64,000 nt of DNA. It comes from an uncultured bacterium. GTDB lineage: Bacteria; Verrucomicrobiota; Lentisphaeria; Victivallales; UBA1829. This document shows, piece by piece, positions 6,285 through 32,700 of the stretch. The stretch spans positions 3,798 to 67,797 of the forward strand of contig CACYZF010000003.1 of assembly GCA_902778895.1 (NCBI GenBank), in the 5' to 3' direction. The translations under genes and the position numbers were made by a program. Positions within the stretch are counted from its first letter, which is position 1. Each line of letters begins with the position of its first letter. A model generated the notes under the pieces. That model did not search any database. It worked only from the letters and a program-made list of their open reading frames with translations, and was not told the DNA's origin.

Positions 6285-8561
6285 TCAGATCTTGTCGCCG
6301 TGTTCGCGGGCGAGCTTGTTGATGGTCTGAAGGTCGAGCTTGCCGGACCCGAGCAGCGGGATACGTTCGAGCTTGATGAAATCCGGGGCTTTCGGGATCC
6401 AGAGCGGCGGCACGTTCTTCTTCTGAAGCTCTTCGATGACCTTTTCCGGATCCAGATTCGGATTCGAGTAGAACACCACGAGGCGTTCGCCGCGTTTCGC
6501 GTCGGGCGCGCCGGTTACGGCCACGTCGTGCGATTCGCTGCCGATGATCTCGCTCACGGTCATCTCGACGAGCTCGTGCGGGACCATTTCGCCCGCGATC
6601 TTGGAGAAACGCGACAGGCGACCGGTGATCGTGATATAGCCGTCCTCGGCCATGGTGGCGATGTCGCCCGTGTTGTAATATCCGTTTTTGATGACCTTCG
6701 CCGTGAGCTCGGGTTCGTTCAGATAGCCCTTCATCACGAGGCCGCCCTTCACGAGCATCAGGCCGGGCGTGTTCGGAGGCAACTCCTCGAACGTGTCGGG
6801 ATCGACGATCTTCACGTGGATGCCGGGCAGCGGCGCGCCGATGCTTCCGGGCCTGCCGCATTCGCGTCCGAGCGTGAAAATGGACGGCGCGAGGTTGATG
6901 GCCACGATGGGCGAGAGTTCGGTGCAGCCGAACCCCTCGGTCACGGTCAGCCCGGTCATCTCCTTGACCTTCTCGGAAATATCGCTGCGGAGCTTCTCCG
7001 CGCCGGTGATGATGAAACGGAGCGACTTGAACTGGCCCGGCTTCAGCTTGCGCATGTAGGTCTGCAGGAACGTCGGCGTGGCGATCAGGAGCGTGAGCTT
7101 GTCCTTCTCCACCGCGTTGCACACGCCCTGTGCGTCCAGCGGGTTCAGCAGGAACGTCACGCGCGTGCCGCACAGGCTGGGCAGGACGAATCCGATCATG
7201 AATCCGAACGCGTGGAAGAGCGGCAGGTTGCCGACGGTCGTGTCGTGCGGCGTCCAGTTCACGTTGCGCCAGAAATTGAAGAAGTCCGAGTTCAGGTTGT
7301 GGTGGGTCAGCATGATGCCCTTCGGCATGCCAGTCGACCCGCTGGAGAAGAGCAGCACGGCGTCGTTCATGCTGTCGCGCCACGTTTTCGGCGCGTACTG
7401 GCACATCAGCATGCGCGAGGGCAGCAGGATAGCGTCGAGGATCGCCGTATACTTGATGCTCTTCGTGATGTACGGACGGATATCCTCCAGCAGGAACATC
7501 TCCGGCGTCGGCTGGAGGTGCAGCTTGTCGAGGAATTTCCGGCTCGTGAGGATGAGCTTGATGCCGGCCTTCTTGATGGATGCCTGACGCACGGCCTCGC
7601 CCACGGAGTAGTTCAGGATCGCGGGGATGCGATCGGCGAACAGCACGCCGTAGAGCACGATGGCAGCGTTCACGCAGTTCGGCAGGAGCACGCCGATGTA
7701 TTTGCTGTCGTTCTTCTCGTCCAGCTGCCGGATCACGCGCGAGAAGATCAGCGCCTTGATGAGCGTATCCAGGTCCTTCGGCCCCTGTTTATCCGCGTCC
7801 TTGTACATGCAGTGGAACGGATGGCGGCGCACCTGACGTGCGAATGCATAGTGGATGGTGCGTTCGCTCGGGAATCCCTCGCTCTCCACGTCCGCGCCCA
7901 TCTCAGAGATGAGCTGACGGAGCTGGAACGGCGTGATGTCCGGGCTGATGCGTTTGCCGATCGCCACGGCCACCGGGATCGGGAACTGGCGCGGCATGAT
8001 GAAGCGGAAACGGCCCTTGTAATACGAGAACATACTGCCCCAGAGCATGCCGATGCGGACCGGAAGGACCGGCACGTCGCGGTCCGCGGGAAGGATCCGC
8101 GAAAGCCCCTTCTTGAACCGAAGGATCAGGCCGTTGCCGGACACGCCGCCCTCGGGGAACATGCAGATGAGTTCACCGTCCTGAAGCAGCTGTTTGGTCC
8201 TCTGCATGAACTCCTGCATCTTCTTCGGCCCGGGACCCGGCACCTCGATCACGCCCATCCGGCGGAAGAGCGGCCCCCAGAACTTCATACGGTAGAACTC
8301 CGTGTGCATCATGAAGTGGATCTTCCGCTTCGTGGTGGCCATCATGATGAACGAGTCGAAGATCGAAACATGGTTGGCCACGAAGACCGCCGGACCCGTT
8401 TTCGGCACATTTTCCTCACCGTCGAAGCGTTCCACGAAGCATGTATGGCGCAGGATCGTGATGATGAGCTTGAAGATTTCGTACGGGAAACAGGCCAGCA
8501 GGACGGCCCACACAATGAGGACCGCCGCAAGACAGCTCAGGACAATAAACAGAGTATTCAA
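6285..8561 (-). CDS. aas: bifunctional PlsC-type acyltransferase / AMP-dependent acyl-ACP(CoA) synthetase (Aas-like)
   Basis: 758 aa. N-terminal TM helix, then the acyltransferase motif NHVSIFD ... FPEGGVSGNG. AMP-binding motifs follow (LLFSSGSTGMPKGIMLTH, YNTGDIA, GKLD). Domain order matches E. coli Aas. Confidence 0.8.
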   Translation of the reverse strand: MNTLFIVLSCLAAVLIVWAVLLACFPYEIFKLIITILRHTCFVERFDGEENVPKTGPAVFVANHVSIFDSFIMMATTKRKIHFMMHTEFYRMKFWGPLFRRMGVIEVPGPGPKKMQEFMQRTKQLLQDGELICMFPEGGVSGNGLILRFKKGLSRILPADRDVPVLPVRIGMLWGSMFSYYKGRFRFIMPRQFPIPVAVAIGKRISPDITPFQLRQLISEMGADVESEGFPSERTIHYAFARQVRRHPFHCMYKDADKQGPKDLDTLIKALIFSRVIRQLDEKNDSKYIGVLLPNCVNAAIVLYGVLFADRIPAILNYSVGEAVRQASIKKAGIKLILTSRKFLDKLHLQPTPEMFLLEDIRPYITKSIKYTAILDAILLPSRMLMCQYAPKTWRDSMNDAVLLFSSGSTGMPKGIMLTHHNLNSDFFNFWRNVNWTPHDTTVGNLPLFHAFGFMIGFVLPSLCGTRVTFLLNPLDAQGVCNAVEKDKLTLLIATPTFLQTYMRKLKPGQFKSLRFIITGAEKLRSDISEKVKEMTGLTVTEGFGCTELSPIVAINLAPSIFTLGRECGRPGSIGAPLPGIHVKIVDPDTFEELPPNTPGLMLVKGGLVMKGYLNEPELTAKVIKNGYYNTGDIATMAEDGYITITGRLSRFSKIAGEMVPHELVEMTVSEIIGSESHDVAVTGAPDAKRGERLVVFYSNPNLDPEKVIEELQKKNVPPLWIPKAPDFIKLERIPLLGSGKLDLQTINKLAREHGDKI

Positions 8562-11155: not shown

Positions 11156-11178
11156 AGCAGGGACTCCTCTATGGTTTG

Positions 11179-11226
11179 TTTCCTGAATGATAACTGAGTA
11201 TATAATATACTACTTTTTTCAGGAAA
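11179..11226. promoter_or_regulatory. nested inverted repeat in the hisG / acyltransferase divergent intergenic region
   Basis: Perfect palindrome AGTATAT-A-ATATACT (11197-11211). It is nested inside the 9-bp inverted repeat TTTCCTGAA (11179-11187) / TTCAGGAAA (11218-11226). Confidence 0.4.
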
Positions 11227-11391
11227 TGAAAGCCGGAAACGGAAAAAACCGCCGATGCCCCCACGATGATGCGGCAAAGATTTGTTTCCATACGTCTTTC
11301 CCAAAAACTCAAAAAAGACGGAAAATGGCTTGAATATTATAGGGTTGAGGATATATTTACAAGGAAATCGGCATATCAGGAAAGGCTTTCT

Positions 11392-12504
11392 ATGACGGGC
11401 AGCACACAGATTACAAAGACCGATGGGACCAGGATCGCGGAACAGCGGGATATCTGGCCGGACATCCTCCGCATCGTCGCCGTGTTCGCCGTCGTCGTCC
11501 TGCACACGGGAGTGGAGCATTTTTACCGGATCGACACCCGGACAGCCACCTGGCAGATATGCAATCTCTGCGAATCGCTGGACCGGTTCTGCGTGCCGGT
11601 CTTCATCATGGTCTCCGGGCATTTCCTGCTGGATCCGGACAGGGAATACACGCTGAAAAAACTGTACGGCGTCAAGATACTGAGGCTGGCGACGGCATAT
11701 CTCTTCTGGTCCGTTTTCTATGTGCTGACCGATTACTGGTTCGCCTTGAAATACGGCCACGACGTCAAACTGACCTGTTCCGTTTTTTTCCGGGAGGCCG
11801 TCGCGGGGAAATATCATCTGTGGTTTCTGCCCATGATGGCCGGACTGTACATGGTCACGCCGGTCCTGCGGCACATCGTCAGGAGCGAAACCGTCACCGT
11901 TTATTTCCTCGCTCTTTCCCTCGTGTTCGTTTTTGCCGTCAATACGCTCGACCTCATCCCGGTCTTTCATGACACGGTCACGCCCGATATCAACCGTCTG
12001 GAGATCAAACTCGCGGTCGGCTTTTCCGGATATTACGTCCTCGGCTTCTGGCTGGCCCGGCACGAGCTCAAACCCGCCGCAAGAAAAGGCGTATATCTCG
12101 CGGGGATCCTCGCTGTCCTCGCGACCGCCGCCATCAACGGCGCGATCGGGTACCAGCTTCATCGCCCCGGGGAATGGATGTTCGGCACACTCATCCTGAA
12201 CACGCTTCTTGCCTCGGCCGCCGTGTTCGTCTTCTGCCGGTATCAGTTTCGGGACTGGCGGCCCGGTCCCGGCGTGCGAAAGCTGACCGGACTGCTCGGA
12301 AAATGGAGTTTCGGCATCTATCTCGTTCACCTCTTTGTTCTTGCGTACTTCAATTACATCCTGATTCGGCTCGACGTCTTTTCGTTCGTCTGTGCGCATC
12401 CCCTCGTTTCGATCCCGGTCGCGTCCGCCGCGGTCTTTTCCGTCAGCGCCCTGTTCGTTTCCGTGTTAAGCAGGATCCCCATCCTGAACAAATACATCGT
12501 CTGA
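11392..12504 (+). CDS. acyltransferase family 3 (O-acyl/acetyltransferase) membrane protein
   Basis: WPDILRIVAVFAVVVLHT N-terminal motif and about 10 TM helices typical of Acyl_transf_3. ATG at 11392 is preceded by CAGGAAAGG. Confidence 0.8.
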   Translation: MTGSTQITKTDGTRIAEQRDIWPDILRIVAVFAVVVLHTGVEHFYRIDTRTATWQICNLCESLDRFCVPVFIMVSGHFLLDPDREYTLKKLYGVKILRLATAYLFWSVFYVLTDYWFALKYGHDVKLTCSVFFREAVAGKYHLWFLPMMAGLYMVTPVLRHIVRSETVTVYFLALSLVFVFAVNTLDLIPVFHDTVTPDINRLEIKLAVGFSGYYVLGFWLARHELKPAARKGVYLAGILAVLATAAINGAIGYQLHRPGEWMFGTLILNTLLASAAVFVFCRYQFRDWRPGPGVRKLTGLLGKWSFGIYLVHLFVLAYFNYILIRLDVFSFVCAHPLVSIPVASAAVFSVSALFVSVLSRIPILNKYIV

Positions 12505-12533
12505 CGCGGAACGACACGATCAGAGGAGCAAAA

Positions 12534-13493
12534 ATGATTTGGAAACAGAAGCTCGTCCGAAACACTCTCTTCGCCGTGCTCGCCGCGACGCTCAGCGTCC
12601 TTTGCACCGGATGCACGGCGATCGTGCTGAAAGGCCAGTTCGGAGCGAAGGAGTCCCGGTTCGATCTGCCGAAATACGCCATGTCGCCCGACCGCCGCGA
12701 GATCACCGTGACGAGCGCGTGGGAAACCCGCCGTTTCCTCCAGCCGCCCTCGATTTGGAACTCGACCTGGAAAGAACGCATTCCGGTGGAGCCCGTGCCG
12801 GACTGCCTGATACGGTGCTTCCTCTTCGTGGAGCCGGATCCCGACGCGCCGCGATACTGGCACGACGCCCCCTTCGTGATAAACACGGACGTGCTCCCGC
12901 TCAACGAGGACAGAACGCTTTATCTCCGGGTCCACCCCGATGAACTGGACGACCTCTCCCAGCCGTTCAAGGTCAAACTGATCCCGCGGGGAGAAGAAGC
13001 CGGTCCTCCGGAAAAACAACCGGAAGGCGAGCTCCGCATGATGTTCCCCGTCGCCGTGAACGGAAACATGTATGTGCTCCTGACCGCCGCACCCGGGGAA
13101 CCGCGGACGAATCCCTTCCGGCAAAAGGCGAAAGAGGTATCCCTGAAGGAGACAGAAGGACGGGGCGAATTTTCTTATTTTACTATGGTTAAAATATTTC
13201 CGTCCTTAATCGGCAGTCAGCAATCCCGCGCATCGCTGACCCGGGCGGCGTACGAATGGGACGAACGCGAGGCGGACCGGTATCTTTATCCTTTCTGCGA
13301 GGGGATGGATGAAGTGCGCATGATCGAATACGAACGCAGGTTCGGGGAACGGTTCCCCACCTGGGACGCGGTCCTCTGGAAATCGCTCTGTCTGCCCCCG
13401 GCGGTCGTCGTGGATACGGTGCTCATGCCTGCCTATTTCGTGGGGAGCGTGGGATTGTACGCGATTCTTCTTCCGTTGAGCGGGATCCAATAG
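12534..13493 (+). CDS. lipoprotein, tandem paralog family member 1 (YceK/YidQ-like C-terminal motif)
   Basis: True start is ATG 12534 (RBS GAGGAG); the 12174 extension overlaps the upstream gene. Signal peptide plus xTGC lipobox. Shared family motifs: YAMSPDRREI, ERIPVEPVPDCLIRC, LRVHPDELDDLSQPF, MFPVAVNG. C-terminal LPPAVVVDTVLMPAY. Confidence 0.8.
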   Translation: MIWKQKLVRNTLFAVLAATLSVLCTGCTAIVLKGQFGAKESRFDLPKYAMSPDRREITVTSAWETRRFLQPPSIWNSTWKERIPVEPVPDCLIRCFLFVEPDPDAPRYWHDAPFVINTDVLPLNEDRTLYLRVHPDELDDLSQPFKVKLIPRGEEAGPPEKQPEGELRMMFPVAVNGNMYVLLTAAPGEPRTNPFRQKAKEVSLKETEGRGEFSYFTMVKIFPSLIGSQQSRASLTRAAYEWDEREADRYLYPFCEGMDEVRMIEYERRFGERFPTWDAVLWKSLCLPPAVVVDTVLMPAYFVGSVGLYAILLPLSGIQ

Positions 13494-13512
13494 CGCCGCC
13501 GTTTTGTGTCCT
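13494..13512. repeat. left copy of the 19-bp direct repeat flanking the TA cassette
   Basis: CGCCGCCGTTTTGTGTCCT, compared with CGCCGCCGTTTTTTGTCCT at 14609-14627 (18/19 identical). Confidence 0.8.
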
Positions 13513-13561
13513 CGAGCTATCGCTTTCAGAAAAGAAAACTCTCTTGATTTTCGAATCGGAT

Positions 13562-13590
13562 TTGACTTTTTCCTGTTTCGGACGTAAATT
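13562..13590 (+). promoter_or_regulatory. putative promoter of the MNT/HEPN cassette
   Basis: TTGACT (13562-13567), 17 nt spacer, TAAATT (13585-13590). RBS AGGAGA precedes ATG 13639. Confidence 0.45.
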
Positions 13591-13638
13591 AAAGATATTG
13601 AACCGGAAACGAGTCGTTTTTTAAGCAGGAGACAAACC

Positions 13639-13929
13639 ATGTGCCAGCTCGACAGACTGCGCAGTTTGAGAAGCGAGATCTACGAGATCGCCAGGAAGCA
13701 CAAAGCCGACAAGGTTTATGTGTTCGGTTCCTGCGCCCGCAAGGAGGAAACGCCCGACAGCGACGTCGATCTTCTGGTCGAACTGCAAAAAGGCGTTTCG
13801 TTCCGCGATTTGCTCGGACTTCAGGACGGCTTCGAAAAGCTTCTTGGATGCAGCGTCGACGTCGTTTCCAAAAACGGACTCAGTCCGTTCATCAGAAACA
13901 CCGTTCTGTCCGAGGCCGTCCTGTTATGA
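13639..13929 (+). CDS. minimal nucleotidyltransferase (MNT/MntA-type antitoxin)
   Basis: 96 aa. Pol-beta NTase motif VYVFGSCARKEETPDSDVDLLV (GS-x10-DxD). The stop overlaps the next start (ATGA at 13926-13929). Confidence 0.85.
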   Translation: MCQLDRLRSLRSEIYEIARKHKADKVYVFGSCARKEETPDSDVDLLVELQKGVSFRDLLGLQDGFEKLLGCSVDVVSKNGLSPFIRNTVLSEAVLL

Positions 13930-14589
13930 AAAAACGCTCGGACGATACGTTCCTTCTGCACATTCATGAAGCATTGAACGATATCGTTTCGTACACGGCG
14001 AACGGTCAGGCCGAGTTCTTCGCAGAGAAAGAAAATGCAGCAGGACGCCGTTGAACGAAAGTTTGAGATCATCGGCGAGGCCGTCAAAAACTTATCCCAG
14101 GGCTTTCGGGAAAAGTATCCGAACGTTGACTGGTCCTACATGGCGAAGTTCCGCGATTTGCTCTCGCATCATTATTTCGGGATCGATCTGGATGTCGTCT
14201 GGTCGATCGCGCAGGAGGATGTGCCTCAAGCACTGAAACAGATCGAAGAAATTCCTGAATTCCGGAGCGCGAAACAGCAATTCGACCAATCACAGGAACA
14301 TGCTCTTGATTTTCTGCTTCGCAATCAAGCTGAAATCCGGGAAATCGCCGGACGGTTCAATATAAAATCACTCAGGGTTTTTGGTGAAATCGCCGGTCGT
14401 TCAGAGAAATATGATTCGGACTTGGAGTTTCTTTTCGAACCGCCCCGGCCTTTTTCTCTTTTTGATCAAGCCGCATTTCTGAATGAGCTTACCGTTCTGC
14501 TCAGGCGCAGGGTTTCTCTTGTTTCCCCTGACTGCCAATTGTATCAGGAGCATCCTGAGCTGTTTGGGAATTCCGTCGAAATCCTGTAG
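13926..14589 (+). pseudogene. HEPN (DUF86/HepT-like) toxin gene interrupted by a frameshift and fused to a degenerate second MNT domain
   Basis: Frame 1 (13926-14054) encodes MKKRSDDTFLLHIHEALNDIVSYTANGQAEFFAEKE and then stops. The +1 frame (ATG 14035 to 14589) continues MQQDAVERKFEIIGEAVKNL...RDLLSHHYF (Rx4H). The shift lies in the A-run GAGAAAGAAAATG. The C-terminal ~100 aa (LRVFGEIAGRSEKYDSDLEFLFE) resemble an NTase with GS->GE and DxD->DxE. It could alternatively be expressed from 14035 as an N-truncated HEPN-MNT fusion. Confidence 0.55.
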
Positions 14590-14608
14590 GCGTGCCATAG
14601 AACTTTTA

Positions 14609-14712
14609 CGCCGCCGTTTTTTGTCCTAATCCGCTGATTTTTTTTTATTTAGGTTGTTTTTTCGGATAGTTGTGATATAGTATGACAGAAACTCGTCATA
14701 CGGAGCGATCAC
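14609..14712 (+). repeat. intergenic promoter module, copy A (also the right 19-bp direct repeat of the TA cassette)
   Basis: CGCCGCCGTTTTTTGTCCTAATCCGCTGA-T9-ATTTAGGTTGTTTTTTCGGATAGTTGTGATATAGTATGACAGAAAC...CATACGGAGCGATCAC is near-identical to 16241-16344. Contains -35 TTGTTT (14654-14659) and an extended -10 TGATATAGT (14673-14681). Confidence 0.75.
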
Positions 14713-15930
14713 ATGAACTCGAAACAGACACTGATCCGCCATCTCCTGTTCGCCGTGGTCGCCGCGGCGCTTTGCGTCTGCGGCACGGGATGCCTCTCCG
14801 CGAGTATCCTGAACAGCGAATTCGCCTCGAAGCGCTCCACGTTCACCGATTACCGGTACGACATGTCGCCCGACCGTGACGAGATCATCCTCACGTGCAA
14901 ACGGAACCGGGCATACAATTTCCTGCCGCTGTACGGGTCCATCCACAGGAACGCCGCGTGGACCTGGAGTTCGACCTGGGAGGAGCGCATCCCGCTGGAC
15001 CCCATGCCGGAGTGCCTGATACGGTGTAGCCTGATCGTGGAGACCGATCCCGAAGCAGGGCGTCTCCTGTGGGCGGACCATCTCCCGACGGCCGTGATGG
15101 AGGTCGAATCGCTCCCGATCCGGGAGGGCGAAACGTTTTATCTGAAAATCCATCCCCACGACCGGGAAAGACTGTCGAAACCGTTCCAGCTCCGCCTGGT
15201 CCCAAAGAAAGCCGATCCCGAAGAAGCCCCGACGGACGCGGACGAAAACGTTTCCGCGCCGGAAAACGCTTCAGGGGCCGCGCCGGAAAACGCGCCGGAA
15301 ACAAAGACCGCCGCGCCTTCTCCGCCGGAATACGAAAAGCGTCTCATGTTTCCGGTCTCCGTCACGCTGGACGGCAGCCGCTATGAACTCCTGACCCTCG
15401 CGCCGGAAAAGATGACGCCCGTCAATCCTTTCCGGAAGATCCGGGAAGATCGGATCAAGGCCCTGGGGGAAAAACGGAAAGAAGCCGAACAGAAGAGAGC
15501 GCAGGAGCAGGACGGAGAACAGGACGGCGCGCAGAAACAAAAGAGCGGTGGGTCACAAAGCATGCTCATGTTGCCTAAGTCGGGGGTTCTTGCGGCAGCG
15601 CTGCTGCTCAGTCGTACAGGGAAATCCGAACGGGGAAATCTTCTGGAGATCGAGGAGAAAAACTGGGACTTTCAGGAGGCAAACCGGTTTCCCGGCCTTT
15701 ATCCGTTCCGCGAAAGCCAGGAAGAGGTCTGCATGATCGAGTACGAACGCGCGGCAGGGGAACGGTTCCCCACCGTGGATGCGGTCCTCTGGGAAACGCT
15801 CTGTCTGCCGTCCGCGATCGTCGGGGACGTGATCCTTTTGCCCGGCGAAATCGTCATTTTCGGTGGAACCACCTTTCTCATTTACGCGATAGTCAAGGGG
15901 ATTCAAGAAGAGGGCAGCCCGATCCAATAG
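14713..15930 (+). CDS. lipoprotein, tandem paralog family member 2 (longest; low-complexity inserts)
   Basis: 405 aa. Lipobox CGTGC. Family motifs YDMSPDRDEI, ERIPLDPMPECLIRC, MFPVSVTLDGSRYELL. C-terminal LPSAIVGDVILLPGE. Extra APENA and E/K/Q-rich segments. Confidence 0.8.
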   Translation: MNSKQTLIRHLLFAVVAAALCVCGTGCLSASILNSEFASKRSTFTDYRYDMSPDRDEIILTCKRNRAYNFLPLYGSIHRNAAWTWSSTWEERIPLDPMPECLIRCSLIVETDPEAGRLLWADHLPTAVMEVESLPIREGETFYLKIHPHDRERLSKPFQLRLVPKKADPEEAPTDADENVSAPENASGAAPENAPETKTAAPSPPEYEKRLMFPVSVTLDGSRYELLTLAPEKMTPVNPFRKIREDRIKALGEKRKEAEQKRAQEQDGEQDGAQKQKSGGSQSMLMLPKSGVLAAALLLSRTGKSERGNLLEIEEKNWDFQEANRFPGLYPFRESQEEVCMIEYERAAGERFPTVDAVLWETLCLPSAIVGDVILLPGEIVIFGGTTFLIYAIVKGIQEEGSPIQ

Positions 15931-15965
15931 CGCCGCCCTTATTACACGTCATACGGAGCAATCAC

Positions 15966-16240
15966 ATGACCGGGAAAAAGACACTGATCCTCCGTCTCCT
16001 GTTTGCCGCGGCATGCAATCCCAGTTTTGAGCTTGCAACCGCAAAAGTCACTGGAGATTTGCGGTAAACAGTTGCAAAAGTCGCAGGAGAATCTTTGTAA
16101 ATCCAACATCCAATATCGGATTTGCAAAGATTTTACGCATGGGATACCGTATGATCCTGTCGCGCGGCTTCTGCCCGAATATGCCGTGGCGGGCGCGGAC
16201 ACTCCCATGGTCCTTATTTTGGGGGAAACGCGATCCAATC
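15966..16240 (+). pseudogene. decayed sixth copy of the lipoprotein family
   Basis: Starts with the family leader and N-terminus (CATACGGAGCAATCACATGACCGGGAAAAAGACACTGATCCTCCGTCTCCTGTTTGCC = MTGKKTLILRLLFAA), then diverges and stops at 16067. The far end keeps a mutated family 3' junction (GATCCAATCGCGCCGAC versus GATCCAATAGCGCCGCC). Confidence 0.6.
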
Positions 16241-16344
16241 GCGCCGACTTTTTTGTCCTAATCCGCTGATTTTTTTTATTTAGGTTGTTTTTTCGGATAG
16301 TTGTGATATAGTATGACAGAAACACAGTCATACGGAGCAATCAC
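16241..16344 (+). repeat. intergenic promoter module, copy B
   Basis: Near-identical to 14609-14712. T-tract is 8 rather than 9, with a few substitutions. -10 TATAGT at 16307-16312. Confidence 0.75.
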
Positions 16345-17274
16345 ATGACCTGGAAAAAGACAGTCGTCCGCAATGTTCTCTTCGCCGCGCTCGCCGCGGC
16401 GCTCGGGCTCTTCTGCACCGGGTGCTTCACCGCCATGACCCTGGACGAACTCGGCTCGACAAAGTCGTACATCGCCGGAGAGCGTTACGGGTTCTCCCCA
16501 AGCCGCGACGAGATCGTTTTTTTCTGCCGGAAGGAAAAAGAGTATTATTACATCCCGTTTCTTCATCCGTTCGGCGTGGCGCCGAAAAAGACGATCCAGT
16601 CTTATGAGAAGCAGATTCCGCTGAATCCCGTCCCGGACAACCTGATGCGCATTGAGTTGGAAGTGACCCCCGACGCATCCGCCGCGCGGGCGGATAAGTC
16701 GCCGTTCACCGGTGCGAGAGGCGGTTTCCGTGCATTGGACGGGATCATGACGTTTTCGATGCCGGCGGAACGCCTTCGCGGGGATGCCGGTTCTTCTCCC
16801 GCTCCGCCGCCGATCCTTGCCGCCGGGGACACGCTTCGCCTGCGGGTGCATCCCGATGATCTGCCTCTCCTGTCCGAGCCGTTCGTGATTTGTCTGCCCG
16901 TGCCGTTCGACCGGCTCATGAACGAGTTTTATCCCGAATACCGAACCGTTTCCGGTGAATCGGCGCAGCCGGAGCACGCTCATGACGCCCATGAACGAAA
17001 TGCCACGGTTCATCTCCTCATTTTCCCGTACGCACAGGACGGCGGCCATTATCAGGCGCTGATGGATGCGGATTTGGGGTTCCGCAATCTCCATCCGTTC
17101 TCACGCGAACTCGAAGCCGAGGTGAAACAGGATAACGAACATTCGATCGGCTTTTTCGGCTGGTGCTGGAAGATCTTCTGGGTCCCAACGGCGCTCGTCG
17201 TGGATGTCGCATTGATCCCCGTTTATCCGTTTTACCTGCTTTACCGGGTCTGTTCCGGCGAATCCGTCCTGTAG
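16345..17274 (+). CDS. lipoprotein, tandem paralog family member 3
   Basis: 309 aa. Lipobox FCTGC. Motifs YGFSPSRDEI, KQIPLNPVPDNLMRI, LRLRVHPDDLPLLSEPF. C-terminal VPTALVVDVALIPVYPF. Confidence 0.8.
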   Translation: MTWKKTVVRNVLFAALAAALGLFCTGCFTAMTLDELGSTKSYIAGERYGFSPSRDEIVFFCRKEKEYYYIPFLHPFGVAPKKTIQSYEKQIPLNPVPDNLMRIELEVTPDASAARADKSPFTGARGGFRALDGIMTFSMPAERLRGDAGSSPAPPPILAAGDTLRLRVHPDDLPLLSEPFVICLPVPFDRLMNEFYPEYRTVSGESAQPEHAHDAHERNATVHLLIFPYAQDGGHYQALMDADLGFRNLHPFSRELEAEVKQDNEHSIGFFGWCWKIFWVPTALVVDVALIPVYPFYLLYRVCSGESVL

Positions 17275-17292
17275 ATTATCCGAGGTGAACCT

Positions 17293-18249
17293 ATGCAGGA
17301 TAAGACGCTCATCCGCAATCTCCTCTTTGCCGTGCTGTGCATGGCGGTCGGTCTGTCCGCCACGGGGTGCATTTTTACGGACATCGAGAACGTCGGGACG
17401 ACCAACACGGAATTCAGCGAATACCGCTACGAAATGTCTCCCGACCGCGACGAAATCGTCCTCACGGCCACAAGGACGAAACAGTTCTTTTATCTGCCGC
17501 TTTACGATTTTCCGGCGTGGACATCCGTCAGGACCGTGGAGGAACGGATCCCGCTGGACCCCCTGCCGGAAAATCTTTCGCGATGCGGCATGATCGTGGA
17601 GGTCGACCCGGACGCGCCGCCCGCGAAGGCGGGGGAGCTCCGCCCTCTGCCGCCCGGATACTGGGATATGGACGAAGACGAGAGGAACGACCCGTCCAAG
17701 GTTCAATATGAATTCAAGGCATACGTCGACGAGCTCCCTTTGCAGGCCGGCGAAACATTCCGTCTCCGGGTCCGGCCCGATGATCTGAAACACTTGGACC
17801 AGCCGTTCCGCGTCAGCATCATTCGCAAAGGAGGGAGGCCGGATGTCCTTCCCCCGGACCTTGAGGCTTATCTCAAAAAGCGCCATCTTTCCGAAGACAA
17901 AGAATACATCGACTATCTGTATACCCGAGGGGAAGAGTACCTGATGTTTCCCTATGCCGTGAACGGCAGCCGCTACGAGCTCCTGAGCGACCTGAGGACG
18001 TTTTACGGGTGGGGGGAGCATGACACCCTGCCCTTCGGCAGGGAGTGGGACGAGGAGAGAGAAAACGAGTATTACCGTCCCCCGTGGATGGGATTCGGCG
18101 GCGGCGAACCGCGCGGGAAGCCTACAGCAGGCGCCATCTGTCTGAAAGTCGTTTGTTTTCCGCTGGCGCTTGTCGAGGACACGCTGCTTCTGCCGGTCTA
18201 TATCCCGCTCGGAGCCGTCATGCTGTTCAACTATGCTTTCGGCAACTGA
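17293..18249 (+). CDS. lipoprotein, tandem paralog family member 4
   Basis: 318 aa. RBS GAGGTG. Lipobox SATGC. Motifs YEMSPDRDEI, ERIPLDPLPENLSRC, FRLRVRPDDLKHLDQPF, MFPYAVNGSRYELL. C-terminal FPLALVEDTLLLPVYIP. Confidence 0.8.
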   Translation: MQDKTLIRNLLFAVLCMAVGLSATGCIFTDIENVGTTNTEFSEYRYEMSPDRDEIVLTATRTKQFFYLPLYDFPAWTSVRTVEERIPLDPLPENLSRCGMIVEVDPDAPPAKAGELRPLPPGYWDMDEDERNDPSKVQYEFKAYVDELPLQAGETFRLRVRPDDLKHLDQPFRVSIIRKGGRPDVLPPDLEAYLKKRHLSEDKEYIDYLYTRGEEYLMFPYAVNGSRYELLSDLRTFYGWGEHDTLPFGREWDEERENEYYRPPWMGFGGGEPRGKPTAGAICLKVVCFPLALVEDTLLLPVYIPLGAVMLFNYAFGN

Positions 18250-18276
18250 TCTATAAGCGGAAAGGGGCGAGCAGGC

Positions 18277-19242
18277 ATGTTTCCGATGATGCACAATATG
18301 CTTTTCAGGCGGTTCCTCCTGCCGTTCGCGTCCGTCTGCGTCCTGATGCTGTCTTGCACCGGGTGCGTGACCCGTTCGGTCATTGACGACCTCGGCACGA
18401 CCAATACGGAATTCACCGATTACATCTACATGATGTCCCCCGGCCGCGACGGGATCATCGTCCGGAGCAAGCGGACGATCAAGTACAACTGGCTGCCGTT
18501 CTACGGATCGTTTCATCGCACGCCCGCCTGGACTTCGGTTTCGAACTGGGAAGAGTTCATTCCGCTTTCCCCTCCGCCGGAAAACCTCTCGCGATGCAGT
18601 CTGATCGTGGAAACTGCGCCGGACGCGCCGGAGCCCGATTATCTGGCGCCCGTCTCCCGGTCGGAATTCGCCTACGCGATCCGGAAAGATTGCGAGTCCC
18701 TCTGCGCCGGCGGTCAGTACGAATTCGAGATCCAGACCGATGAACTCCCCCTTCGCGAAGGCGACACGCTCCGGCTCCGGGTGCAGCCCCGGCATCTGCC
18801 TTACCTGTCCCAGCCGTTCCGCATCCGGCTGGTCCGCCCGTTCGAGAAAGAGGACTGGTTCCCGCGGCACGCCCGGCGGGAGGTTGCGAACAACAGCGAA
18901 CAGTATTTCATGTTTCCGGTCGCCGCGGACGGCAGCCGCTACGAGCTCCTGACCGTGCTCCGGCCGTGGGACGAATGCCACAGCAGCGCCGGGTCTCGGG
19001 AGTGGATCGACAGCATTTACCCGTTCCGGGAAAGCCAGCGGGAGGAGATCATGCGGGAATACGGCGACAGACGTGACGCTTACGATGAACGTCCGCATAC
19101 CGACGGGAAACCATCTTTCGGGGCCATCTGCTGGAAAGCCCTGTGGTTCCCCTCGGCGCTCGTTGCGGATGTGGTATGTCTTCCGGTCTACGCGGGCGCA
19201 ATAGGTATGCTGGAATTAGTCCGCCTCCAACGAGGGTATTAG
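18277..19242 (+). CDS. lipoprotein, tandem paralog family member 5
   Basis: 321 aa. Lipobox SCTGC. Motifs YMMSPGRDGI, EFIPLSPPPENLSRC, LRLRVQPRHLPYLSQPF, MFPVAADGSRYELL. C-terminal FPSALVADVVCLPVYAG. Confidence 0.8.
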   Translation: MFPMMHNMLFRRFLLPFASVCVLMLSCTGCVTRSVIDDLGTTNTEFTDYIYMMSPGRDGIIVRSKRTIKYNWLPFYGSFHRTPAWTSVSNWEEFIPLSPPPENLSRCSLIVETAPDAPEPDYLAPVSRSEFAYAIRKDCESLCAGGQYEFEIQTDELPLREGDTLRLRVQPRHLPYLSQPFRIRLVRPFEKEDWFPRHARREVANNSEQYFMFPVAADGSRYELLTVLRPWDECHSSAGSREWIDSIYPFRESQREEIMREYGDRRDAYDERPHTDGKPSFGAICWKALWFPSALVADVVCLPVYAGAIGMLELVRLQRGY

Positions 19243-19263
19243 TTTAAGTAGGAGACAAATATC

Positions 19264-19677
19264 ATGAACATCCTGAACCGAATTAAGAGTTTTCATCCCG
19301 ACCCCGTCTGCAAAGCGGTGGTCCTCTTTGTCGTTCTGTTCGGCCTTGCGCTTGTGTTCGGCATTCTCCCGATCGAATACAACAGAAAAGAAGACGCCTC
19401 CATGTTCTGGGTAAACGTCTTCGACATCGCCTGGCTTTTGCTGTATCTTGCTTCCTGGATCCAGCTGATACGGGTTGAAAAAATCTTCAATCGGAACTAC
19501 CCGCACAAACCAGGGGGCCTCGGGGTGTCTTTCAGGTCGCAGCCGAAACCGGCGCATCCGGTCCGCGCGGTCCTCTCCGACATCACGCGGAGAACCCTGA
19601 TGGTGATTTTCACGACACTGGCGGTGATCCTTCTGTTTTCTTCCTGTGTCCTCTGGTGCGCCTCTGCTGTCGACTGA
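19264..19677 (+). CDS. small 3-TM membrane protein, hypothetical (last gene of the lipoprotein array transcription unit)
   Basis: 137 aa. RBS AGGAGA. Three hydrophobic helices. Visibly lower GC than flanking genes. Starts 21 nt after paralog 5. Confidence 0.55.
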   Translation: MNILNRIKSFHPDPVCKAVVLFVVLFGLALVFGILPIEYNRKEDASMFWVNVFDIAWLLLYLASWIQLIRVEKIFNRNYPHKPGGLGVSFRSQPKPAHPVRAVLSDITRRTLMVIFTTLAVILLFSSCVLWCASAVD

Positions 19678-19819
19678 GAACGAAAAGATGGGTGCTTTGC
19701 GTCAAAAACTCGGGAACCGATTTCTCCTCGGGAACACGGCGAAACAATATGATATTTCCGAATTATTTCGGTTTTAAGCAAAATTTTCTAAAAAAAAAGC
19801 GAAAAAAGAGGGAGGGGGG

Positions 19820-19848
19820 TTGACAAAAGGGAGAAAGGGCTGTATAGT
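19820..19848 (+). promoter_or_regulatory. sigma70-type promoter of the rpmJ-rpsM-rpsK-rpoA-rplQ operon
   Basis: TTGACA (19820-19825), 17 nt spacer, TATAGT (19843-19848). A ~140 nt structured leader follows, up to rpmJ. Confidence 0.6.
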
Positions 19849-19995
19849 ATTAGCTCTTGTGTGTTTCGCGGCAAATTGTGGTGATTGCCGTGCATTCCAA
19901 AAGCACAACCGCACGTATGACAGGCGAACCGGAGCATGATCCCCGGGGCGCACTGTCATGGAATCGAACGCTATACAAACTATCGGAGTACGAAA

Positions 19996-27712: not shown

Positions 27713-29428
27713 TCAGTTCACGATCGAGTCGGTCGACTCCTTCTGACGTTTCTGGAAACCGCCCGGCTGCGGATAGAGAAGGCGTTCGTCGAGCGCAAAG
27801 ATCCAGCCTTCCTCCTCGCCCGGTTCCAGGTATGATTCGACGATCTTCCAGCCGTGGTCGTAAAGGTAGGACGCCTGGGAAATGCGCGGCCAGAGCAGCA
27901 CGCCGTATTTCGAGCCGAACGCCTTGTAGACGTCCTCCGGGTACGGGTCGCCGCCGAGTCCGGGCGTGGTCGAGGTCAGCAGCAGCGTGCGACGCGGGTC
28001 CTTCGAATATGAGAACATCGGGTCCATGCCCCACTGCCACAGGTGGTCCGTATCGTTGTAGAACAGCGCCGGGAAATCGCTCCAGTCCAGATTGACGACC
28101 GGACGTCCCGCGGGCACGTGCTCCTTCAGGAATGCGGTCATCTTCGGCAGAGGCTGGACCAGCACCTGCGGACACTCCTTGGCGAAGTAATACGAGGAAT
28201 AGATGCCAAGCGCGACCGAAAGAACGGCCAGCAGGACCGGGGTTCCCCATTTGAACTTGCACAGCGGCAGATGGAATCCTTCGCGCGTCATATGCTCCAA
28301 GAGGAGCAGAAAAGCGATCGCGACGAACGGACTGGCGTATTCCACAGTACGCACCGCCACAAAGATGCCGGCGGAAAACCCGCCCGCCAGAACCGTGACC
28401 GCGATAATGTTCGGGTCGGTCTTCCTAAGACCTTTGCGTTCGACCAGACGGACGAACATCATCAGGATGCACCAGGCCATAAGATAGAGCGGAGCGGCGG
28501 TCCTGTTGAATCCGAAGCGCGGCGCCAGCATTTCGCTGGGCTTCGACAGACGGACACCCGCCATCATCGGTGCGATCAGGGCGTCCCACGACTGGACTTT
28601 CCAGATGACGAACGAATTCGGGAACTGCGGATGGAGTGTGAGGCCGAGCAGGACGCCGCCCAGAGACAGCACCGGAAGCCAGAGCTCGCGCCAGCCGCCG
28701 CTTTTCAGCCGCGACAGAGCGAATATCAGGGGGATGATCACGATGAAGTGCGGGTTCGAATAGCTCCATGCGAAGCAGAACGAAAGCACACCGACCACCG
28801 CCAGACGGAACCGGAACGGCCCCTTCGCCAGCAGTCCGGTCGTAAACGTCAGAAACGCGATGGACAGAATATGCGGACGCAGTACGGAAAGACGGAACGT
28901 GTAGTTCGGCACGATGACGGAAAAGAGCGGCGCGCCGAGCAGCAGATAAAGCGGACGCACCCCAAGCCGCCCCGCCGCGAAAACACAGCCCAGGATCGCG
29001 AGGGCGGAATAAAACAGCGCGGCGACGTGGAACGGCGGATTCAATGCCGCGCCGAAGGCTTTTTCGACCGCAAAAATGACATTGATCCCGGCATGGTACA
29101 GCAGCTCCTTGTCGGCGAAATGGTCCTTCCATACGGACATCTGCGTCCAGGGAAACTCTTTCGCAGCATACACCTCCGGGCCGAGCTTCGCCATCATCGC
29201 GTGGTACAGCGCATCCTGCGAGTTCTCGCCGGTCTTCATCACGCAGACACGGAGCGCGCCGAGCCATACGAACGGGATCAGGAACGCGAACACGAGCATG
29301 ATCCATCCGGCACGGCCGAGTCCGGAGCGCGGACACGCGGATACTTCCGGAGTCTGAACTCCGGTCTGTGGCATCTCCGCCGTCTGTGTCTGAAGCATGT
29401 CCTGCTGCTGTTCCATGGAAAACCCCAA
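27713..29428 (-). CDS. large polytopic membrane protein with C-terminal soluble domain (GT-C-like glycosyltransferase suspected)
   Basis: 571 aa, at least 10 TM helices. First-loop QDALYHAMMAKLG resembles the GT-C (D/E)xxY loop. ~150 aa hydrophilic C-terminus. No confident family assignment from sequence alone. Confidence 0.6.
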   Translation of the reverse strand: MGFSMEQQQDMLQTQTAEMPQTGVQTPEVSACPRSGLGRAGWIMLVFAFLIPFVWLGALRVCVMKTGENSQDALYHAMMAKLGPEVYAAKEFPWTQMSVWKDHFADKELLYHAGINVIFAVEKAFGAALNPPFHVAALFYSALAILGCVFAAGRLGVRPLYLLLGAPLFSVIVPNYTFRLSVLRPHILSIAFLTFTTGLLAKGPFRFRLAVVGVLSFCFAWSYSNPHFIVIIPLIFALSRLKSGGWRELWLPVLSLGGVLLGLTLHPQFPNSFVIWKVQSWDALIAPMMAGVRLSKPSEMLAPRFGFNRTAAPLYLMAWCILMMFVRLVERKGLRKTDPNIIAVTVLAGGFSAGIFVAVRTVEYASPFVAIAFLLLLEHMTREGFHLPLCKFKWGTPVLLAVLSVALGIYSSYYFAKECPQVLVQPLPKMTAFLKEHVPAGRPVVNLDWSDFPALFYNDTDHLWQWGMDPMFSYSKDPRRTLLLTSTTPGLGGDPYPEDVYKAFGSKYGVLLWPRISQASYLYDHGWKIVESYLEPGEEEGWIFALDERLLYPQPGGFQKRQKESTDSIVN

Positions 29429-29644
29429 AGCGAATCATAATCCCGGCGTACGGGCGCGAAAACATCAAACCTAATAAGATACAGCCGGAATGCCGGAACT
29501 TCAACCGGAAAGCGGAAGATAATCGTTCTTTTTTTCGGGAAAAAGGTTGCCGCGGCCTGATGCAAAATGCACCCGGCAATGGCATTTCAAACGTACCCTG
29601 ACAGAGCATCCTCAAAAAAACAGAAAAAAACAGATAAAATCCTG

Positions 29645-29673
29645 TTGAAAAAACGGAGACAAAGATGTATATT
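29645..29673 (+). promoter_or_regulatory. putative promoter of the hybrid sensor kinase gene
   Basis: TTGAAA (29645-29650), 17 nt spacer, TATATT (29668-29673). This argues against the 29567 ORF start. Confidence 0.45.
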
Positions 29674-29719
29674 GCTTTCTGAGCAAGATAATAGGACAAC
29701 TAATTCATGTTCACCAGCC

Positions 29720-32700
29720 ATGCAAACACGTTTTCCGCATATCACAAAGTCCGTTCTCTTTGAGATACTTCCCATGTTTCGCCGGGGGTTGACTCTGTTC
29801 CTTTTCCTTGCTCTGATTCTGTCTGCGGTCCCGATGTACGCACAGGAAGAGGATGAAGAAATCGAAGAGGAAACGGAAGAGGTCGAAGAGGAAGAGGAAC
29901 TCGTAGAGGAATTCATAGAAGAAGATTCTGTTAAAGAGATATCGGACGTGCAATCCGGGGAAAAGCCGGAAGAATCCGAACCGGCAGAGGAAGAACATTC
30001 CCGCTGCGTCCTGATGCTTTTCCCGTTCACATCCTCCTACGCGGAGCATGTGTATGTCTCAAACGCAGTCTCGAAGCACGTAGCGGAGCTGGATGGTTCC
30101 TACATCGTAATGCAGAAGGAATTCGATATACTGAATGACTCACGGGAGGAAGTCCAACGCCGGTTTGAAAGCCTGAAGCCGCTGTTCGACAGCGGCGACG
30201 TGGCGGCCGTGATCGGCATCGGACAGGAACTTCTGCCTCTGCTGAACAAAAATATCGGCCTGATCCCGGAAAAAACGGCCCTGCTGCTTTTCACTGAACG
30301 GATGCCGATGGAAACCGAATTCGCGAAACGCGAGAATATCGGCGGCGTATTCCTGGACAATCCCGTGGAAAAATCGATTGACCTGATCTTCCAGGTCTTC
30401 CCCAAAACAAAACGTATCATTCCGCTCGCCGGACACACGGAAACAGGGGAACGTTTTATCGCCGGCGTCAAAGAGGCTCTGAGCGAATCGCATCCTGAAA
30501 CGGACTGCATGATCATCGACAACAGCAAAGTGGATACGCCCGAAATGATCCGGCGCGTCACCCAAAGCGGCAAGGATTCCGTGGTCCTGTTCCACTCGTG
30601 GTACGGGCTTAACGCCGTGAACCTGGCATCCCTGTCGTTCTTCCTGCAGCGTCTTTGCCTCAATCCGGACGTTCCGGTTTTCACCGTCCATGATTCGATG
30701 TTCGCATTTCACGTCGCCGGCGGTACCGTATGCCAGTCCGCGACGGCAATCGGCAAGTTGATAAATCTGCTTGACCGCTGCGTGGTGGACGATGAATCCG
30801 TGGGAGGCCAGTGGGAAACGGTCGAAGCAAAGCAGATCATCACAGCAAGCAGTTTCCAGCGGTTCGGCATCAGCCGGCACACCAATGCGGAAAACCTGAT
30901 GATCAGCATGGACAGCCAGTCCATGTTCCGCCGGGAAAACGCCCGCGCGCTGGTCGCCGTGACATTCTCGCTTGTACTGGTCATAGCGCTCCTCTGCTAC
31001 ATTGCCATATGGGATCATTACCGGCGGCGTCTGCTGAAACTCCTCCGCGCCGTGTTCAAACAGATCCCGAGCCGCATCGTCATCGGCAGCCGGAATGGCA
31101 TCGCGCATTTCATCCACGTGGGCAAGTTCGGCGAGGACAGCGGCCTCGTGCGTTTTCCCGTGAACGAGCTCCCGGAATACGCGGATGAGACATTCCGCAA
31201 TGCATGGGAAGAGGTCTTTGCCACCGGCGAAACACAGAAATTCCAAATGGCCACAGGCAGCCGGCACCGTTCTGTGGAAATGGCGCTGTTCGAGAACAAG
31301 GAGATCTTCGGGCGGGACACGGCGTTCTGGATTTCGCACGACATCGAAGACCTGCTTCAGGCACAGAATGAACTGAAGGCCGGCCTCGCCAGTCAGGAAA
31401 GACTGAATGACCTCTTCGCCGCCTCCCTGAAAAAACTCTCCGCCGACGGCACCGCCGTCGATATGACCAACGAAGTCCTGTCCTTCATCGTCCGCAGCGT
31501 GAAGGAACACATGAACGCGGATTTCTGCTGCATCATGCGGTACAACTATGAAGAAAAGGGTATGGAGCTTTTCGTCAGCGAGGCATCCGACAGCATAACG
31601 ATCGACAACGACAAGAAATTCATCCCGTTCCCGGCTCAGAAAGACGACAAGCTGATGTCCAGGCTGGAAAACCACATGCCGGTGGTAATAAACGACTTCT
31701 CCGCCTCGCTCTTCATGAAGCCGGATTCCGCCGCGCAGACAGCAGGCAAACGCCCGAAAAAAGTCAGCATGTGCTTCTCGCCGCTCTTCATCGACGGCAA
31801 ACTCTGGGGTCACATCGCATCCATTCACCAGAAGGCGAAATACGAATTCTCCGACCTGTATCTGCAATTCCTCCAAGGCACGGCCCACATCGTGGAGGCC
31901 ATGCTGGAATACCGTTTCATCCACTCCAGACTCGAACGCGGCGAGTACGAGAAGCAGCTCATCATGGAAAACCTCCCGCTGCCGCTCATCCTGCTGGACC
32001 GCAACCTGAACCTGATCCAGCGCAATTCCGCGGCGCAGAAGGATCTGCTCGGATTCCCGGACGCCCTCCGGGACAACCTCTGCCACACCGTCTTCTGCAA
32101 GGCGAAAGTCCCACCGGAAGACTGCCCGGTCCGCGGCGTCCTGAACGACTTCAAACCGCACGTGAAGGCTCTGACGTTCAACGGCAGGGACTACATGGTC
32201 AACGCCTACCCGATCATGATCGGCAACGAACTTACGAACATTCTGCTGGCATGGTTCGACGTGACCGCGGAAAACGAAAACCAGCGCAAACTGGAAGCCG
32301 CGCTCCGCGAGGCGAAGGACGCCAGCAAGGCCAAGAGCCTCTTCCTCGCGTCCATGAGCCACGAGCTCCGCACGCCGCTGAACGCCGTGATCGGGTTCTG
32401 CGAGCTTCTGCAGAACAGCGCTCTGCCGCGCGAAAGCCAGCTCGAGTACCTCAAGTCCATCTCCGTGGCCGGTCATACCCTGCTCGACCTCATCAGCAAC
32501 ATCCTCGACACCTGCAAGCTCGAAACCGAGCAGGTTGAGCTCCAGAACGAAAAGACCGATGTCCGCAGGATCGTCACCGACATGGTCGCCATGTTCAAAT
32601 CGCTCGCCGAGAAGAAACAGCTTGCGCAGCCGCTGGTGGTCCCGGACGATCTCCCGTACGTGGTGCTCGACCGCATGCGCCTGCGCCAGGTGCTGGTGAA

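Follow-up and report, generated by a model that had tools for sequence, protein, structure and literature searches.

How did a toxin-antitoxin (TA) cassette with no mobility gene of its own come to lie inside an array of repeated surface-protein genes? The question is raised by a 64-kb stretch of contig CACYZF010000003.1 from an uncultured rumen bacterium of the Victivallales (the whole stretch is referred to as “the window”). Between paralogs 1 and 2 of a five-gene family of envelope proteins, the window carries a cassette of 1,096 bp with 48.8% GC (13513-14608; forward strand, like all stranded window features reported here). It contains a gene for a minimal nucleotidyltransferase (MNT) antitoxin, mntA, and a gene for a HEPN-domain toxin, hepT. 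We compared the locus with related rumen Victivallales/Lentisphaeria contigs (loci L001 onward) and found that the cassette is a discrete 1.1-kb insertion/deletion bounded by a co-extensive 19-bp duplication of its target.

The left copy of the duplication, CGCCGCCGTTTTGTGTCCT (13494-13512), lies directly 3′ of the TAG stop codon of paralog 1 (context 13491-13517: TAG, CGCCGCCGTTTTGTGTCCT, CGAGC). The right copy, CGCCGCCGTTTTTTGTCCT (14609-14627), differs from it by one mismatch (context 14604-14636: TTTTA, CGCCGCCGTTTTTTGTCCT, AATCCGCTG) and continues into AATCCGCTGATTTTT, which belongs to the promoter module of the downstream paralog. Both copies are exactly co-extensive at 19 bp. This pair, with its single mismatch, had been reported in the initial annotation of the window, and a search of the whole 64 kb allowing up to three mismatches recovered these two copies only. 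By chance, 0.02 matches are expected on average (100 shuffles), and no shuffle had two or more. The 19-mer combines a CGCCGCC tail found after paralog stop codons with the T-rich sequence at the 5′ edge of the conserved promoter module. It forms stems of 4 bp at most, and a terminator scan called no intrinsic terminator in it. The same junction sequence had also been claimed to follow two other units of the array. This holds at 16241, where an 18-nt variant occurs (CGCCGACTTTTTTGTCCT); the junction at 15931 shares CGCCGCC only and is a short form without the promoter module.

The base composition of the cassette is foreign. Its GC content of 48.8% compares with 60.2% for the window, where windows of the same length have a standard deviation of 3.8%; it falls in the lowest 0.04% and is the window minimum. 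GC at third codon positions is 0.70 in mntA (z -2.0) and 0.56 in hepT (z -4.9) versus 0.80±0.05 in 40 window genes. The synonymous-codon distance of the cassette is 0.76 versus 0.20±0.10 for size-matched chunks, 1 of 37 of which was equally extreme. Both GC and codon usage thus differ significantly from the flanks, in line with the lower GC noted at the outset. The putative promoter proposed for the cassette, TTGACT-17 nt-TAAATT (13562-13590), was recovered by a consensus scan and is kept in the copies of the cassette at other loci. Its spacer holds a palindrome of the CCG-N3-CGG type.

Homology to those other copies spans ~13528 to ~14603, almost the whole interval between the repeats. The left-end sequence, CGAGCTATCG, and the right-end sequence, CATAGAACTTTTA, each adjoin the 19-mer. 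A comparison of 13513-13560 with 14560-14608 revealed no terminal inverted repeats; the cassette ends also lack an attC-like inverted repeat, and the cassette encodes no recombinase or transposase. The initial annotation had stated that the window lacks integrases and transposases altogether. This stands for the genes called on the parent contig at window ~3.6-23.9 kb and for 20 further open reading frames (ORFs), a set that leaves three large ORFs (53-62 kb) outside the test. There is no tRNA or tmRNA gene within the 64-kb window, and the only Rfam match at 11-20.5 kb is a sub-threshold one to the glutamine riboswitch, on the wrong strand.

Related genomes contain both occupied and empty versions of the site. 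The cassette lies between both 19-mers in 10 of the 11 fetched loci (L001, L003-L011), with one or two mismatches in the right copy, and in L002 it lies between the 18-nt variants CGCCGCCTTTTTTGTTCT and CACCGCCTTTTTTGTCCT. A search of related genomes for an empty site with a single 19-mer had been suggested as a check, and we found such sites, with the same flanking genes. Two of them, L012 (an independent ENA assembly) and L013 (NCBI GCA_017963105.1), were identified by searching with the upstream paralog. In both, one copy of CGCCGCCGTTTTGTGTCCT comes after a 315-aa paralog and leads into AATCCGCTGATTTTT and paralog 2, with no cassette. Their gene order is that of L002, and L012 shares 96-99% identity with L002 in the flanks. 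The only copy in L012 (3968-3986) is identical to the left copy of the window and is not a chimera of the two variants in L002. A strict empty-site pattern had no match in JGI metagenomes; a looser pattern based on the promoter module matched five loci, three of them informative. One JGI locus, L035, is an empty site with one 18-20-nt variant followed by the AATCCGCTG module and paralog 2, in a lineage with no more than 88% identity in the hisG region. What separates L012 and L035 from the occupied alleles is exactly the cassette and one repeat copy. The coexistence of empty and occupied alleles in relatives therefore indicates a real insertion/deletion. A different kind of deletion is seen in L034, where a short junction joins par0 and par2.

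These sequences come from metagenome assemblies, in which repeated junction modules can give chimeric joins, so an assembly artefact or a chance repeat had to be considered. However, the same structure occurs in over 10 independent assemblies, which stem from several studies and were built with several assemblers, and the empty alleles come from ENA, NCBI and JGI assemblies alike. Together with the low chance expectation of the repeat, this makes the probability of an artefact negligible.

The cassette also occurs elsewhere, at 80-92% nucleotide identity. We found it between a GH43/DUF1016 gene and a beta-lactamase-like gene (L022-L028, L041-L043), at an Imm-NTF2 locus (L030-L032, with 50% amino-acid identity), beside phage-like genes (L038, L045) and directly beside hisG (L044). 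The 19-mer is absent from L022-L030 and L041-L046 at up to three mismatches, and no direct or inverted repeats flank the cassette at L022, L026 and L030. A search with the cassette alone, proposed earlier as a way to find similar flanking repeats in other contexts, thus returned the cassette without them. Because the copies in other contexts lack the 19-mer, the repeat is part of the target rather than of the element. The neighbors of the cassette at these loci were tested as possible members of the same paralog family and are not members.

This observation bears on whether the 19-mer could be an att-like site at which a recombinase acting in trans (a tyrosine or serine integrase, or an Xer-like or integron-like enzyme) inserts and excises the cassette. 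The clean occupied and empty alleles, with two versus one copy of 19 bp, would fit such an enzyme, and att cores typically have this length. Both copies in L002 carry one variant that differs from the empty site of its sister L012, a pattern expected from a separate insertion, and TA cassettes are common integron cargo. Against this, cassette copies at other loci have neither the 19-mer nor a similar repeat, so there is no att partner; the cassette end has no attC-like inverted repeat; and no integrase was found among the window genes examined, nor a tRNA gene. Moreover, lineages differ in the junction (CGCCGGCCTTTTTGTCCT, CGCTGCCCCTTTTTTGTCCT), which would not be expected of a conserved recombinase site. 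We regard site-specific recombination as very improbable.

A second alternative arises from the array itself. The two 19-mers could be pre-existing unit boundaries, with the cassette replacing the promoter module and coding sequence of one unit (or deletions trimming them), and the empty alleles arising by unequal crossing-over. Junction and promoter module are indeed repeated in the array (14609-14712 and 16241-16344). In L033, paralog 1 is followed by one junction and then by paralog 3, with the cassette and paralog 2 missing exactly from junction to junction. The array is also reshuffled between strains: the gene preceding the cassette is par1 in the window and par0 in L002. Finally, L039 and L040 lack the left 19-mer; there the cassette abuts a short junction and the initial ~6 paralog codons, which looks like the replacement of a paralog body. 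However, the window, L002 and L003-L010 have no paralog remnant between the repeats, and what precedes the right copy is not the 3′ end of a paralog but cassette sequence common to the non-array copies plus ~5-7 nt. The two copies are co-extensive, as a duplication predicts, and the empty sites of L012 and L035 lack exactly the cassette and one copy. Replacement of a unit is thus rather unlikely.

We consider it probable that the cassette arrived by one old insertion through a staggered break or a short-homology join. The initial annotation had proposed insertion at, or recombination within, the repeated inter-unit sequence with duplication of that sequence, and the empty sites and the repeat-free copies elsewhere support this. 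Under this model, a self-contained type VII cassette (promoter, mntA and a coupled hepT) would have entered, once and long ago, a long-form junction that separates two paralogs in the envelope-protein array of a rumen Victivallales/Lentisphaeria lineage. This event would have duplicated the 19 bp separating the stop codon upstream from the promoter module downstream, either by repair and fill-in of a staggered break or by a short-homology (Campbell-type) join. We prefer these routes because there is no recombinase, no terminal inverted repeat and no att-like sequence belonging to the cassette. Afterwards the cassette would have been inherited with the array, and homologous recombination between junction modules would have moved or removed it, giving rise to the presence/absence polymorphism seen today. 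Recombination between the two 19-mers may also have removed it. The emptiness of L012 and L035 may reflect either precise loss, between the 19-mers or between junction modules, or a site that never gained the cassette.

Several observations weigh against a single insertion with target duplication. To our knowledge, no enzyme or mechanism makes a 19-bp target duplication without element ends. Other inserted modules of the same genomic island (RelB/YafQ, AAA_14 and HigBA-like genes) have no convincing flanking repeats. Array-unit recombination between junction modules, as in L033, also yields deletions that look clean. The two copies in L002 share derived changes (a G is lost in both), which needs gene conversion or a separate insertion. 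Judging from L039 and L040, the duplication could be specific to the clade of the window and L002 and not part of the original event. A single deletion in the window type would suffice to give the left edge of L039 and L040, and the reverse direction is also possible. The sequence GAGCT directly after the left repeat is common to the window and L039/L040 and could mark the true left end of the cassette, although a match of five bases is too short to be reliable. As a lesser possibility, the 19-bp duplication might point to an as yet undescribed insertion route for promoter-bearing TA cassettes without element-encoded ends.

The distribution of the cassette suggests that it is not a recent arrival. 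We found it in the hisG–rpmJ island or in the paralog array in four species-level lineages: the group of the window, L002 and L003; L039 (RUG12541); L040 (Tb.RUG.336), which shows the array context only, with hisG outside that locus; and L044 (RGIG6930). The right junction, consisting of cassette, CTTTT, CGCC, a T run and AATCC, is common to the window group, L002, L039 and L040 and is lacking in L044. The nucleotide identity of the cassette to the window copy is 78-96% versus 87-96% for the flanks, and is no higher than that of the flanks. Because it occurs in at least four lineages and is at least as diverged as the flanks, we infer that the cassette has probably been a long-term resident of the hisG–rpmJ island.

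The cassette had been annotated as a pair of MNT and HEPN genes. Both families are confirmed by PF01909 and PF01934, but hepT is split by a 4-nt duplication, and an additional MNT domain had been overlooked. The antitoxin gene mntA (13639-13929) is intact and encodes a protein of 96 aa (MNT1) that matches PF01909 (2.7e-14), PF18765 (2.7e-13) and the PADLOC family PDC-S09 (3e-32). Its GSX10DXD motif reads GS-CARKEETPDS-DVD at residues 30-44, with GS coded at 13726-13731 and DVD at 13762-13770. The exact MNT1 protein is present on at least 23 contigs from several rumen studies. The mntA stop and the hepT start overlap in ATGA (13926-13929), downstream of one promoter-like site. The NCBIfam models MntA_antitoxin and HepT_toxin gave 52.4 and 44.1 bits, both under the curated cut-off of 60; by these scores, MntA and HepT are family-level relatives and not equivalogs.

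The lesion in hepT is a tandem duplication, AGAA/AGAA (14026-14033), which is a single unit in all other alleles in an alignment with seven alleles. It leaves a 5′ fragment of 42 aa (13926-14054) that ends at a premature stop caused by the frameshift, and a 184-aa ORF in the +1 frame (14035-14589) that encodes the rest of the HEPN domain, a linker and a degenerate MNT domain. In its frameshifted form the lesion region reads AGAAAGAA. A 1-nt insertion was also considered as the lesion and was ruled out by the alignment. The 184-aa ORF covers only positions 25-120 of PF01934 (3.3e-21); the repaired gene covers 1-120 of 120 (E 7.5e-26). The RX4HXY motif, RDLLSHHY, is coded at 14152-14175, and its residues R75, H80 and Y82 are invariant in 23 homologs. 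An intact hepT ORF of 219 aa is present in L002, L003, L005-L010 and L022. The frameshift is limited to L001 and L011 (the contig of the window itself, as STEW19 scaffold_10 and as the NCBI metagenome-assembled genome) and L004 (Logan ERR3224598).

The duplication interrupts hepT after codon 35, which most likely leaves an inactive toxin and a decaying module with an orphan antitoxin. A point against this reading is that the assemblies with the frameshift may derive from one sample, in which case they do not confirm it independently. The split gene might instead still work, with the 184-aa ORF translated from the internal ATG at 14035, or with frameshifting at the AGAAAGAAAA tract, to give an attenuated or regulated toxin. 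A purine-rich tract does precede this ATG, the 184-aa product retains both RX4HXY and the second MNT domain, and mntA is intact and identical to the copies in many strains. However, the 36 lost residues make up helix one of the HEPN bundle in the structural model (H6-23, H28-33) and correspond to Pfam positions 1-24, and every other allele has the intact 219-aa ORF without the duplication. A separate frameshift at the GH43/beta-lactamase locus (L026:6545-6560, L027 and L028) also speaks against it: there, a TT insertion in the second MNT domain leads to a premature stop and a product of 184 aa, which suggests recurrent decay of hepT. Function of the split gene is therefore improbable. The 184-aa proteins P0023 and P0024 were considered as products of the same frameshift as in the window and were ruled out, as they result from a TT insertion in the second MNT domain.

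In the intact state, judging from the published HepT/MntA mechanism, MntA would AMPylate Tyr82 in the RX4HXY motif of HepT and thereby silence the RNase. The last ~95 residues of HepT (~127-219; 14308-14586) form a pseudo-MNT domain with a degenerate catalytic signature. It is 33% identical to MNT1 (E 3e-8), is matched at residues 127-200 by PDC-S09 (2e-13), the same PADLOC family as MNT1, and can be aligned to the minimal nucleotidyltransferase 1WOT. A Pfam search of the repaired HepT did not recognize this region. An AlphaFold model of HepT (pLDDT 88, pTM 0.62) was used for a Foldseek search, which matched the MntA chains 7BXO_E, 6M6U_A, 1WOT, 1NO5 and 8XEO over ~90 columns and the HepT chains 5YEP_C and 6M6U_G over ~123 columns.

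The signature of the pseudo-MNT domain is GE-X10-DLE with VSLV, versus the canonical GS-X10-DXD with VDxV. In Shewanella oneidensis MntA, adenylylation is abolished by substitutions at G27/S28 and by D39E/D41E (PMC7641770). Because the GS, DXD and VD elements are degraded and substitutions of this kind abolish adenylylation in S. oneidensis, the pseudo-MNT domain is predicted to be catalytically dead. The degenerate signature is general in the family. The lone exception, P0039, has GS…DID…VD and a Pfam match; its gene adjoins a phage-tail-like gene, and a separate MNT gene lies upstream there too.

By sequence comparison, this fusion is a rare gene architecture. A profile search of 1.84 billion representatives returned ~5 clusters with the HepT(N)-MNT(C) order (P0035, P0135, P0136, P0160 and P0274), and the opposite order, MNT(N)-HepT(C), in ~25 of the best 150 matches. 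P0160 (226 aa), which belongs to this HepT(N)-MNT(C) group, is a reciprocal case: its MNT signature, GS…DID…VD, is canonical, but its HEPN motif is RNFLAQYY, with Gln in place of the catalytic His. Apparent fusions in Dehalococcoidia (L049-L050) were ruled out, as they are ordinary separate MNT and HepT genes.

Comparison with known systems identifies the element, on the basis of sequence, as a type VII HepT/MntA cassette (Class I HEPN/MNT; Yao et al., 2020), a known kind that differs here by the rare HepT-pseudoMNT architecture and by its decaying copy in the window. As in SO_3165/SO_3166 of S. oneidensis (PMC7641770) and the HEPN-MNT system of Legionella (PMC11586414), a small MNT gene lies 5′ of and overlaps a DUF86/HepT gene. 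The GSX10DXD motif in MntA and the RX4HXY motif in HepT, whose Tyr is the AMP acceptor, are both defined from the S. oneidensis system (PMC7641770) and are shared, as are PF01909 and PF01934 and the folds 7BXO, 6M6U and 5YEP. So is the mobile, low-GC character of a module with its own promoter, which is putative here. Unlike these systems, HepT here is ~100 residues longer owing to the C-terminal degenerate MNT-like domain, the NCBIfam equivalog scores are under the cut-off, and hepT is frameshifted in the window strain.

The closest counterpart for the fusion is FhepTA of Shewanella prophages, a one-gene system whose N-terminal MNT is active and which lacks a separate antitoxin; its fused MNT domain can regulate HEPN by blocking its dimerization (Yao et al., 2026; PMC13000451). 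Both join MNT and HEPN on one polypeptide in mobile DNA. The order is reversed here, however, with HEPN at residues 1 to ~110 and the MNT-like domain at ~127-219, and the fused MNT domain lacks GS and DXD, is predicted to be unable to self-AMPylate and is accompanied by a separate intact mntA upstream. Only the MNT-HEPN order has been described so far, as FhepTA (PMC13000451), and the HepT-MNT order is rare. A census of HEPN proteins in 2013 recorded occasional DUF86-MNT fusions and noted that HEPN is usually the inactive domain in multidomain proteins (PMC3710099). Kanamycin nucleotidyltransferase and GlnE-type proteins likewise have covalently linked MNT and HEPN domains with one non-catalytic partner (Anantharaman et al., 2013; PMC3710099). 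In those proteins, HEPN lacks the RNase residues and MNT is active, whereas here HEPN keeps RX4HXY and MNT is degenerate.

These comparisons allow speculation about the added domain, which is probably a non-catalytic docking or regulatory domain. It might be, for example, a cis-inhibitor of HEPN dimerization, a docking platform for free MntA or a sensor of a trigger, and a block of dimerization as in FhepTA is plausible by analogy. More doubtful is our suggestion that MntA and HepT-pseudoMNT form a distinct three-domain type VII subtype, seen so far in Victivallales/Lentisphaeria only and including prophage-like loci, in which the dead MNT would act as a built-in regulator of the RNase.

As an insertion, the cassette resembles several kinds of mobile DNA without matching any of them. 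Like TA cassettes of chromosomal integrons and dif/att modules, it is small, bears a promoter, is precisely present or absent in a repeat array and has no recombinase of its own; unlike them, it has no attC-like or dif-like structure and no intI among the genes called and tested, and its repeat is a duplicated target that is absent from other copies of the cassette. As in the target-site duplications of transposable elements, a direct duplication of the target flanks the insert and the empty site has a single copy, but there are no terminal inverted repeats and no transposase in the cassette, and other copies of the cassette lack the duplication. Target-site duplications are usually 2-14 bp, so 19 bp is outside this range, although long duplications are known in the IS1634/IS1549 group. 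A trans-acting enzyme encoded elsewhere in the genome may have moved the cassette. It also differs from genomic islands and cis-mobilizable elements with an att core, as the core 19-mer is absent from its other insertion sites and the window has no tRNA gene.

The genes on both sides belong to an array of five paralogs (12534-19242) encoding proteins of ~300-400 aa with an N-terminal signal sequence (…CTGC) and a C-terminal hydrophobic helix. In paralog 1 (12534-13493, 319 aa), the signal peptide terminates in a Cys motif and a hydrophobic segment lies at the C-terminus; the protein shares 30-39% identity with paralogs 2-5 and has homologs among proteins of Lentisphaeria metagenome-assembled genomes. 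Paralog 2 (14713-15930, 405 aa) follows the cassette in every locus of the window type and the L002 type. The family had no match in Pfam or NCBIfam and was seen in Victivallales/Lentisphaeria only. In distant species (L016-L021) a single paralog gene lies beside a chagasin-like Inhibitor_I42 gene and panD, with no array.

Paralog 2 is preceded by a putative promoter and leader module (14628-14712) of ~85 nt, AATCCGCTGATTTTTTTT…GGATAGTTGTGATATAGTATGACAG…CATACGGAGCAATCAC-ATG. A second copy lies at 16259-16344, with 54 nt identical between the two (14639-14692 and 16270-16323), and further copies are found at L016:3484-3545, L020:7918-7975 and L036:1670-1760. Junctions in the array have two forms, a long one with the module and a short one without it. 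The module is near-invariant even in species that have the paralog at a different locus and with only 58-60% protein identity, an unusually strong conservation for a promoter or leader. A sigma-70 scan and Rfam gave no score or match for it, and its role as a promoter is inferred.

A second rearrangement scar, left by another insertion, lies at 15931-16258. It comprises a short junction, the first ~17 paralog codons fused at GCGGCATGCAATCC to a homolog of the region upstream of an AAA_14/DUF4143 ATPase gene, and the 18-nt junction variant (16241-16258), after which the promoter module follows. The AAA_14/DUF4143 gene is present in L002, L012 and L014, and its ORF is deleted in the window. In L012, a 14-nt imperfect direct repeat, CGTGCTATATTGTT at 6489-6502 and CGTTCCATATTGTT at 7883-7896, surrounds this ORF; it probably occurs by chance.

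The hisG–rpmJ island (window 11156-19990; also L002, L003, L005 and L012) is hypervariable between strains, and the order of the array within it is reshuffled. It gathers TA and defense-like genes, including Gp49/HTH_31 (HigBA-like), DUF3791, RelB/YafQ, DUF6364 and AAA_14-DUF4143 genes, with an acyltransferase gene in the window. Outside the island, the second-lowest GC stretch of the window (~29300-30550, ~49%) covers an intergenic region and the 5′ part of a gene for a 1322-aa GAF/HisKA/HATPase/REC hybrid sensor kinase (29567-33535).

The locus offers a clean natural example, in near-identical backgrounds, of a TA cassette that enters or leaves an array of repeated genes without its own mobility gene, and it marks the hisG–rpmJ island of these rumen bacteria as a hot spot for such modules. 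The frameshift in the window and the independent truncations elsewhere illustrate ongoing decay of a TA module. The three-domain layout is a stronger lead than the insertion: a free, active MntA is combined with an RNase that bears the acceptor tyrosine and with an attached dead antitoxin fold. If the pseudo-MNT domain is regulatory, this would be a third layout of the family, beside separate genes and the FhepTA fusion.

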